The notes under the pieces: generated by a model
Told to the model about the DNA's origin: nothing
What the model saw: the letters and a program-made list of their open reading frames with translations, nothing else
The model's database searches: none
Position numbers and translations under genes: made by a program
Shown here: piece after piece, positions 28,710 through 30,349 of the stretch
How positions within the stretch are numbered: position 1 is the stretch's first letter
Layout: each line of letters opens with the position of its first letter
Assembly: GCA_951406725.2 (NCBI GenBank)
Contig: OX597823.1
Location: 68,882,001 to 68,946,000, forward strand
DNA length: 64,000 nt
Reading direction: 5' to 3'
DNA from: Octopus vulgaris
Taxonomy: Eukaryota

Positions 28710-29082
28710 CACCTTCAATTCTCTTGTTGAATGTTTTCCATATTTAATTCAATTAATAAGTTGTCTCACTGCTCAATTTCTTCTTTAAGGATTATTATGA
28801 TTCCAACATAAAGCCAGTTGCAATAAAAATATTTATTAAAGTCTATTCAAATGCATCTAATTATCTATGAAAGTCTGTCCATATGCAGATATCTATTTAT
28901 TAAAGTCCCTCCATAAATGTACATATATATATACCAGAGTAAGCACATAAATGCTTAACAAGGTGGAAAAAATGGTACTCGAATACCAGAGGTAGAGTAA
29001 TGTGTTTTATTAAAAAGCAGCAGAAATATCACAGAAACTGTTACTCAGAGTTTCACATTTGTTGGACAGTTTTGTTTAAACA

Positions 29083-29126
29083 AAACTGTCTGACGAACAG
29101 GAATGGGAAACTCTGAGTAACAGTTT
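29083..29126 (+). ncRNA. Minimal type-I hammerhead ribozyme
   Basis: aaactgt-CTGACGA-acaggaatgg-GAAAC-tctga-GTA-acagttt: 7-bp stem I, intact core boxes, stem III CTC/GAG, GUA cleavage triplet; stem II weak. Confidence 0.72.
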
Positions 29127-29371
29127 CTGTGATATTTCTGCTGCTTTTTAATAAAACATGTTTCTGTACCTCTGGTATTCGAGTAGTATTACATATATAT
29201 ATATATATATATATATATATATATATATATATATATATATATATATATATATATATATATATATATATATATATATATATATATATATATATATATATAT
29301 ATATGTAATAGTACTCGAATACCAGAGGTACAGAAACATGTTTTATTAAAAAGCAGCAGAAATATCACAAA

Positions 29372-29415
29372 AAATTGTTACTCAGAGTTTCCCATTCCTG
29401 TTCGTCAGACAGTTT
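29372..29415 (-). ncRNA. Minimal type-I hammerhead ribozyme (mirror copy)
   Basis: Reverse complement aaactgt-CTGACGA-acaggaatgg-GAAAC-tctga-GTA-acaattt (one stem I mismatch). Confidence 0.68.
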
Positions 29416-30349
29416 TGTTTAAACAAAACTGTCCAACAAATGTGAAACTCTGAGTAACAGTTTCTGTGATATTTCTGCTGCTTTTTAATAAAACACATTA
29501 CTCTACCTCTAGTATTCGAGTACCATTTTTTCCACCTTGTTAAGCATTTATGTGCTTACTCTGGTATATATATATGTACATTTATGGAGGGACTTTAATA
29601 AATAGATATCTGCATATGTGTGTGTGTGTATGTTCAGATTGTCCTCGCACAGGGGCCATCTGGATTAGCCAAGCCATGCCAGCAAGGAAAACAGACGTTA
29701 AATGATGATGATGTGGGTATTTACGCATCTTTCTTCACTATCCAGGGATAAGTTGACAATCACTTGATGCTTTAAAAAACAATGTTACCAAACAATGTGA
29801 GTGAGCTGAGACAAACTGGAATCAGCTCTTAGCAAATTATAAGAATATTGATAGAACTCTGTACACAACCAATACTTCAGATTGTCAAAGGCTTTGTGTC
29901 TCACTTAGCTAATGTTTAGATAGAGTCTACTTCATCTTTCTCTAAGTTAATAAAATAAATGTTTGTAAAGTAATTACTGCATGAAAAACACTTATTAGCC
30001 GTTCAAAAAAGAAAAAAATGCTAACTTCATTCAAACATTTATCATCTGGTGTCAACATTTTTATCACAAGAATCACATCCTGATTTCAATGGCTAATATG
30101 TCTTTCACACTGTTTTAAGATACAGTCTCAGATTAAATCACATGCCAGATGAGTATATCTCTGAAACATTAGTAAAGTATTCAACATACTCTATACGCTT
30201 AATATTAAGATTATCTAAAACAAAATATTTATCCATAAAAAGAACTTAACATATACATACCTATCTAAAATATGATTGTCTAAATCAGCAACAGAACAAA
30301 ATTCAATACAAATAAATTTTGCTGTGGTTATTATTGTTTCTACTATTAA

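Follow-up and report, generated by a model that had tools for sequence, protein, structure and literature searches.

How did a nested palindrome carrying four hammerhead-like units come to surround a (TA)n run in the octopus genome, and does it encode an RNA device? The palindrome lies at 28880–29618 of the 64,000-nt stretch of Octopus vulgaris DNA analyzed here (the window), which overall is AT-rich animal DNA with many microsatellites and LINE remnants. An initial annotation described two near-perfect inverted arms of about 313 bp around (TA)n, each again a palindrome, and proposed a self-complementary mobile cassette able to switch between a ribozyme fold and long double-stranded RNA. The nested geometry is genuine in the sequence and consists of two layers of different origin. 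The arms (28880–29192 and 29306–29618) differ at five of 314 columns, namely at 28987, 29123, 29127, 29186 and a base inserted after 29121; they are 98.4% identical by BLAST, and a sixth row of the global difference list is an end gap. Between them, (TA)56 fills 29193–29304, and each arm is itself palindromic (about 89% over 216 columns) around inner centres at 29077/29078 and 29420/29421. The locus, whose features are collected in Table 1, very probably records two events, the insertion of a Penelope-like element (PLE) followed by one inverted recopy, neither of which gave a working RNA device.

Table 1. Features of the nested palindrome and its flanks (positions in the window).
Feature	Position	Strand	Remarks
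Host 32-bp tandem repeat, 2.7 copies	28830–28915		Unit starts at 28830, 28862, 28894
Host flank carried into the outer duplication, 40 bp	28880–28919		Mirror at 29579–29618
Left target-site duplication copy, 14 bp, TACATATATATATA	28920–28933	+
Layer-1 insert	28934–29189		Two 5'-truncated PLE 3' ends, head to head
One-sided PLE tail of the long arm, 42 nt	28934–28975	−	From comparison of both arms
Bulged hairpin downstream of the hammerhead	28971–29001	−	Mirror at 29497–29527 (+); shared with Hydra-type 3' ends
Unit u1, decayed hammerhead	29034–29072	−	6 nt gone from core and stem II
Perfect 26-nt palindrome at the head-to-head junction	29065–29090		Centre 29077/29078; from sequence and fold
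Unit u2, full-core hammerhead	29083–29126	+	7-bp stem I, 3-bp stem III, stem II of 2 bp
Remainder of the short tail-less arm	29127–29189	+
Right target-site duplication copy (29190–29203) running into (TA)56	29190–29304
ATATGT microhomology at inverted-copy entry	29301–29306	+
Inverted copy of 28880–29192 (layer 2)	29306–29618	−	Private duplication or fold-back artefact
Unit u3, copy of u2	29372–29415	−	Extra C.A mismatch in stem I
Unit u4, copy of decayed u1	29426–29463	+	GUA site retained at 29454–29456
ATATGT microhomology at exit, then (TG)n	29614–29619	+

Hammerhead units and the family behind them

The four units sit where the initial annotation had placed them. A model built from 19 hammerheads outside the window, which shares its search motif with the window by construction, ranks them first to fourth among 25 window matches (33.3, 26.4, 20.9 and 20.9 bits; the next match scores 18.3). 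The conserved core letters and the NUH site are present in u2 and u3 only, and the GUA of u2 at 29117–29119 agrees with the cleavage site previously predicted at 29119/29120. These two copies had been called intact. Their core letters are indeed kept, but the closing pair of stem II is lost in both (A.G at 29097/29106, leaving 2 bp), and u3 has the additional mismatch in stem I. A stable stem II is absent from the predicted fold, with a pair probability of 0.005 even for the unit alone. u2 was the sole match of a relaxed type-I scan of the window, with zero pairs scored at the base of stem II because 29097/29106 is A.G. This closing pair alone does not prove inactivity, since a U.U mismatch at 10.1–11.1 is common in the Hydra hammerheads given in the supplement of PMC8557442. 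The description as a minimal type-I hammerhead with a palindromic stem III holds: nine letters of the u2 stem III are predicted to self-pair as a dimer helix at −7.9 kcal/mol.

The Rfam covariance-model search that had been suggested as a check of the hammerheads did not recover them, giving no gathering matches and 49 E-value matches that include no hammerhead family. Most of the 49 are microRNA hairpin models caught by the palindromes; a microRNA gene was rejected. The bare core pattern has nine matches in the window against 4.95 expected and is not beyond chance (8 of 100 shuffles reach nine), and, folded as monomers, the four units do not surpass shuffles (z 0.08–1.35). Identification of the hammerheads is carried by the stems and the family data, not by the bare core pattern. 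Elsewhere in the window, a core-like word with a similar 5' stem at 55503–55536 (+) is interrupted by (TC)n(TA)n and has no 3' half.

To describe the family, contigs from four public runs (X1, X2, X3 and X6, the last carrying another species label) were aligned to 29306–30250 and selected at 85% identity. Each run gave 5,022–9,303 contigs across the whole aligned stretch, SINE included; the SINE-like repeat in question, a fragment of which lies right of the palindrome at 29669–29713, is extremely abundant (depth above 1e6). Positions 29306–29575 are matched by thousands of contigs per run, with a peak summed depth, which is not a copy number, of 5,300–21,800 times the flank depth. Bins of the element lie thousands of times above the flank and thus identify a dispersed multicopy family. 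The family majority letter at 11.1 (29392) is U, at 94% of depth in X1, and pairs with A10.1. A majority G-C also replaces the A-U of the window at 29399/29394 (74% and 77%), a double change that is unphased and falls in two CpG steps, so that methylation decay could explain it. The listed variants fall at U4 (U/C), at N7 and at wobble-compatible stem sites, and no variant of at least 8% is listed at C3, G5, A6, G8, A9, G12, A13, A14, A15.1 or U16.1. Because the majority letters mend stem II and these ten core positions show no such variant, the family carries a real and well-formed type-I hammerhead, of which the window copy is a decayed version.

The family is very abundant and probably uncatalogued, although it may already stand in Repbase or Dfam. 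It has no match, window tail included, in the PLE consensus set of the supplement of PMC8557442, and a literature search found no paper on this particular hammerhead-bearing family. A 2026 octopus repeat annotation (PMC13282606) reports Penelope-like families, its main text containing neither "hammerhead" nor "ribozyme". The published octopus family Hydra-1_Obim was rejected as the source, as the 3' end and hammerhead of the window family do not match its published consensus (supplement of PMC8557442).

A weak remnant of the 3' part of the family is also found at 47755–47804 (E 4e-4). Other repeats of the window include LINE-type ORF pieces at 38929–41370 (−), where a 650-aa frame matches RVT_1 (E 1e-22), and broken frames with a YIDD word at 51819–52830 (+), which we take to resemble a PLE-type reverse transcriptase; this remnant has no Pfam match (near 52050–52700) and no match to 120 Hydra-type proteins. 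Older inverted repeats of 70–84% identity lie at 1045–1491, 2559–2817, 24460–26033, 56293–56559 and 61404–61519, some of them paired interspersed repeats around microsatellites.

A Penelope-like insertion in (TA)n

The insert is flanked by direct repeats of TACATATATATATA, an AT-rich, low-complexity target-site word for which part of the match is possible by chance. The long arm, on the u1 side, ends in a 42-nt tail and the u2 side has none, which gives the one-ended tail of roughly 30–40 bp that belongs to PLE insertion units. The other parts of such a unit are also present, namely a type-I hammerhead in a repeated 3' end and an adjacent, inverted, 5'-truncated copy placed head to head. Since u1, u2 and u4 have three minority letters in common, both arms of this first layer derive from one template. 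The earlier proposal of PLE ancestry and (TA)n targeting is supported by this one-tailed inverted pair with its 14-bp duplication in (TA)n.

Each of these traits has been described for PLEs. Insertions made of an adjacent inverted 5'-truncated copy with a one-sided tail are reported in PMC8557442, and palindromes at PLE head-to-head junctions were read as the result of self-priming (PMC3846280). Minimal hammerheads paired on opposite strands, with low activity even as dimers, are known from PMC4209133, which already reports such pairs 100–700 bp apart in Schistosoma. According to PMC11167929, targeting is AT-rich, internal initiation of reverse transcription accounts for the tail, and the hammerhead is dispensable for insertion in vitro. 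The insert therefore resembles EN+ PLE insertion units (PMC8557442, PMC3846280, PMC4209133) in its head-to-head copy, junction palindrome, one-end tail, duplication and type-I hammerhead; it differs from them in that its arms are cut to about 110–145 nt without an ORF, and in that the whole insert is recopied in inverted orientation together with host flank. Layer 1 is, by its sequence anatomy, a standard PLE insertion, real and common to the runs.

For this first step we propose that host TACA(TA)n was nicked by a PLE with a hammerhead and (TA)n as its target, most likely a Hydra-clade member, and that only the 3' end of the PLE was reverse-transcribed, giving the usual inverted pair; the anatomy of the pair is observed, whereas the route to it is our reconstruction. 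The long arm, with hammerhead, hairpin and 42-nt tail, would have been joined just upstream of stem I to the tail-less arm. The copy would then have decayed, through a 6-nt loss in u1 and a U-to-G change at the base of stem II in u2.

Flanked by two (TA)n runs, 22496–22760 contains another head-to-head palindrome (187 bp, 96%); some 79 additional bases extend it on a single side, and a hammerhead core was not found in it. It looks like a similar PLE scar from another family, and its palindromic part (22496–22681) has no match in the supplement of PMC8557442.

Relatives were sought in metagenome contigs with a 17-nt motif from the 3' half of the unit, the CUGA half being omitted. The motif gave at least 130 matches in at least 120 loci, with about 350 estimated. 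Among the listed matches, CYGANGA lies 6–16 nt upstream in 66 of the 114 that have upstream sequence, and CTGT precedes the core in 57 of 63 complete units. Stems pair in 98.1% of cells in an alignment of 19 units (0 of 500 shuffles), with stem III and half of stem I fixed beforehand by the search pattern; the 19 come from 26 distinct units after exclusion of four with a damaged 5' strand of stem I and three near-duplicates. Covariation is limited to one stem II pair that changes on both sides, in 4 of the 19 rows, a level that 332 of 500 shuffles attain. The 120 listed loci include ten head-to-head pairs, nine of them with a one-sided tail, and all eight pairs that could be measured share a flank word of 8–20 nt. 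In GTDB genomes the tail motif has two matches, at chance level, and the hammerhead motif has four matches in viral contigs, none with the core.

Two of the metagenome loci (L001 and L054) link the hammerhead to a protein, as it lies 112 and 102 nt, respectively, behind the end of an endonuclease-type ORF. The relatives of these ORFs are proteins of about 710 aa with RWK, DKT, YRDD and CxCX5C, and one family among them is the published Hydra-2_Amil. RWK, DKT and CxCX5C form the Hydra-clade signature (PMC8557442). The full order of reverse transcriptase (RWK, DKT), CxCX5C linker and C-terminal GIY-YIG without CCHH, placed before the hammerhead, was found in L001, L054 and their relatives only. 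Pfam left the ORF pieces of L001, L054 and L079 unrecognized, and the PLE assignment of the related loci relies on protein relatives and Hydra motifs, not on Pfam. In L079 (2–617), a short hammerhead arm on the plus strand abuts a Hydra-type reverse transcriptase fragment on the minus strand (64% to P0005), a longer form of the inverted arrangement.

The bulged hairpin downstream of the hammerhead is the second trait shared with Hydra-type ends. It occurs in 31 of 82 hammerhead-family matches, compared with 1 of 42 other matches and 4 of 1278 background windows, as well as in u1/u4, and the Hydra-2_Amil consensus also shows it. The hairpin lies 27–44 nt downstream of the hammerhead motif, and its stem letters differ between families (L003, L009, L100, L114, L117); the MAFFT alignment of the hairpin is of poor quality. 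We consider it a candidate element for reverse transcriptase binding or initiation. The window family further resembles Hydra-2_Amil and Hydra-2_Ajap, as given in PMC8557442, in stem I (ctgt/acag), stem III (actc-x-gagt), the GUA site and the (TA)n target, but its majority stem II has 3 bp and a GGAA loop instead of 4 bp, and the tail in the window measures 42 nt instead of 62–79 nt.

The canonical hammerhead with a 4-bp palindromic stem III and the preference for (TA)n, both of which are Hydra-clade traits, are found in the window family, and membership in this clade is likely; the assignment is built on two short RNA motifs. A tblastn search with 120 Hydra-type proteins found no match in the window, and no ORF was seen attached to the family. 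The absence of an ORF, together with the different hammerhead of Hydra-1_Obim, would also suit an inverted pair from a different PLE clade, be it Neptune, Poseidon or one without a name, or from a non-autonomous family mobilized in trans. Neptune too is linked to microsatellites (PMC8557442), and short RNA motifs can converge or be swapped. We regard such an origin as unlikely, given that hammerhead stems and downstream hairpin both fit Hydra-type ends and that nearly all Hydra families insert in (TA)n (PMC8557442).

Origin of the inverted copy

The second layer extends beyond the element. The host tandem repeat crosses the left end of the arm, and the depth in the outer bin (29594–29625) falls to single-copy level (39, 5, 23 and 0 in the four runs, compared with 1e4–4e5 in family bins); the outer part of the arm is therefore host flank. 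Contrary to the view of the arms as element throughout, the outer 54 bp of each are not element DNA and comprise 40 bp of host flank plus the target-site copy. No target-site duplication was found outside the outer ends. If the copy is taken out, (TA)n(TG)n remains, like the compound repeat at 27290–27384.

These ends also bear on the idea that a (TA)n core is enclosed by the 313-bp terminal inverted repeats of a DNA transposon of the foldback or MITE type. Its inverted repeats would be suitably long and near perfect; its ends, however, consist of single-copy host sequence and interrupt a local tandem repeat, no duplication flanks them, and what is repeated, a retroelement 3' end, lies inside. 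This transposon was rejected, its ends not being repeated element termini, and we give it the lowest probability of all readings considered here.

Short-range template-switch events are known to leave a local inverted copy and to return to the original template through microhomology, and fold-back artefacts are a known phenomenon of long reads. Layer 2 shares the local inverted copy and the microhomology return with both, and differs in its length of 310 nt and in being seeded by a (TA)n palindrome. As a second step, the perfect palindrome AC(AT)nGT could have folded back, whereupon a polymerase would have made a reverse copy of some 310 nt on the left, running through the insert into the host flank and returning to the (TA)n/(TG)n junction via ATATG(T) microhomology; the junctions are read directly from the sequence and the copying mechanism is proposed from them. 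There is about an even chance that this step was a germ-line event, either private or polymorphic. A somewhat smaller probability falls to an origin in library preparation, gap filling or assembly.

The depth of contigs in the four runs speaks to this choice. Contigs that match the inner centre perfectly reach 0.97 (X3) and 0.90 (X6) of the flank depth, where two arms predict 2.0, although hairpins can be under-sequenced and the X3 and X6 depths may be lowered for this reason. In the outer bin, counting 13 of 32 positions, the ratio is 1.03 in X3 and 0.74 in X2. X1, which may be the source sample and thus not independent, gives 1.77 when 13 of 32 positions are counted and 0.92 when 25 are. A 95-nt X1 contig that matches perfectly has the right-arm letter at 29511, at 1.30 of the flank depth, which fits one arm (1.29) as well as a heterozygous duplication (1.32), and family copies inflate X1 depth. 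With about one arm per genome, layer 2 seems to be absent from three of the four runs, and the caution raised in the initial annotation, that the fold-back might be an assembly artefact, was justified.

If the right arm is absent in the animal, it would have been produced by fold-back, gap filling or polishing at (TA)n, and the true locus would hold one PLE pair followed by (TA)n(TG)n. This possibility, a sub-case of the second step above, is a serious one, though we place it slightly short of an even chance. Besides the single-arm depths in X3, X6 and X2, it is favoured by the restoration of the compound repeat without loss of a base once the arm is removed. Where the arms differ, it is mostly towards letters of the family, the pattern expected from polishing with repeat reads: 28987 in the left arm has a 97% family letter, and 29311 and the A-run 29370–29376 in the right arm resemble other family copies. 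The arm divergence of 1.6% is close to the flank divergence between runs (9/566 in X3, 5/566 in X2). A parallel is offered by the metagenome contig L050, a perfect palindrome (1284/1284) around a head-to-head hammerhead pair, flank included, which is probably an assembly fold-back.

On the other side stand the right-arm letter at 29511 in the X1 contig and the X1 outer-bin value of 1.77, which may reflect two real arms. No listed contig bridges 29619–29685, and 29626–29657 has no depth in any of the four runs, but the depth mapping skipped 29607–29641, exit junction included, so the uncovered junction carries no weight as evidence. Among the 28 (TA)8+ runs of the window, a single one lies between long, complex palindromic flanks, so the artefact is not a systematic one.

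Folding of the transcripts and meaning of the locus

The predicted fold of the whole region is one hairpin of −598 kcal/mol. On either strand, each core-complete unit follows its own antisense copy, contributed by the neighbouring unit. The predicted cost of imposing the hammerhead is 4.1 kcal/mol for the unit alone and rises to 44.8 kcal/mol in nascent RNA, to 46.8 when the left insert is folded and to 76.6 for the entire region. The predicted probability of stem I in context is 1e-27 to 1e-50. The penalty would drop to about 4 kcal/mol if the RNA began at the centre of the palindrome, a start for which there is no evidence. Given the upstream antisense copy and the fold penalty, the supposed switch between ribozyme and double-stranded RNA is not credible unless transcription starts at this centre; with the hammerhead 45–77 kcal/mol above the hairpin in context, the claim is unsupported. 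These predictions suggest that the ribozymes of the window are dead or trapped and that a transcript, if any, would be a plain long double-stranded RNA hairpin.

The proposed mobile, non-autonomous, retrozyme-like cassette of 740 bp, toggling between a dimeric hammerhead and long double-stranded RNA, fares little better than the foldback transposon, and we judge it highly improbable. Two core-complete units are present on opposite strands, the palindromic stem III is predicted to be able to form a dimer helix, and u2 and u4 lie on one strand, 337 nt apart. Yet u4 lacks the core, so that a u2/u4 dimer should cut at most one site, and the improbable stem I, the antisense copy that intact units follow on either strand and the roughly single arm in the other runs all weigh against the cassette. 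Its outer ends are single-copy host DNA that cuts the 32-bp tandem repeat and has no flanking target-site duplication. Animal non-LTR retrozymes (PMC7229834; bioRxiv 10.64898/2026.07.22.740005) are likewise non-coding and low in GC and carry a type-I hammerhead related to PLE ends. They form head-to-tail tandems with a working ribozyme in each unit (PMC7229834) and circular RNA, in contrast to the head-to-head units of the window with only one core per strand. A retrozyme was rejected on this ground, no head-to-tail tandem of intact same-strand hammerheads being present.

The locus thus represents a retroelement scar of a familiar type that accident or artefact has doubled once. By itself, as a decayed scar, it matters little. 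It does carry a warning: conspicuous nested palindromes arise by chance where head-to-head PLE ends lie next to (TA)n, and sites of this kind are prone to fold-back errors.

The parent family deserves to be catalogued for its abundance and its well-formed majority hammerhead. In the window and in all ten pairs among the listed loci, the two arms meet head to head no more than a few tens of bases upstream of the hammerhead core, with 37–84 nt between the two GAAAC in the pairs and 52 in the window; short-read assemblies favour short palindromes, which may alone explain this clustering. The bulged hairpin downstream of the hammerhead is conserved between distant animals. We tentatively advance, as an idea with a minor share of the probability, that the locus is a copy of an uncatalogued, abundant, Hydra-type short element with a fixed turnaround set by its RNA and a conserved bulged hairpin downstream. 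Should the hammerhead fold halt the reverse transcriptase or make it turn, with the hairpin serving for its binding or for initiation, the successive stages of PLE integration could be read from thousands of such scars, and the PLE hammerhead would gain a testable role.
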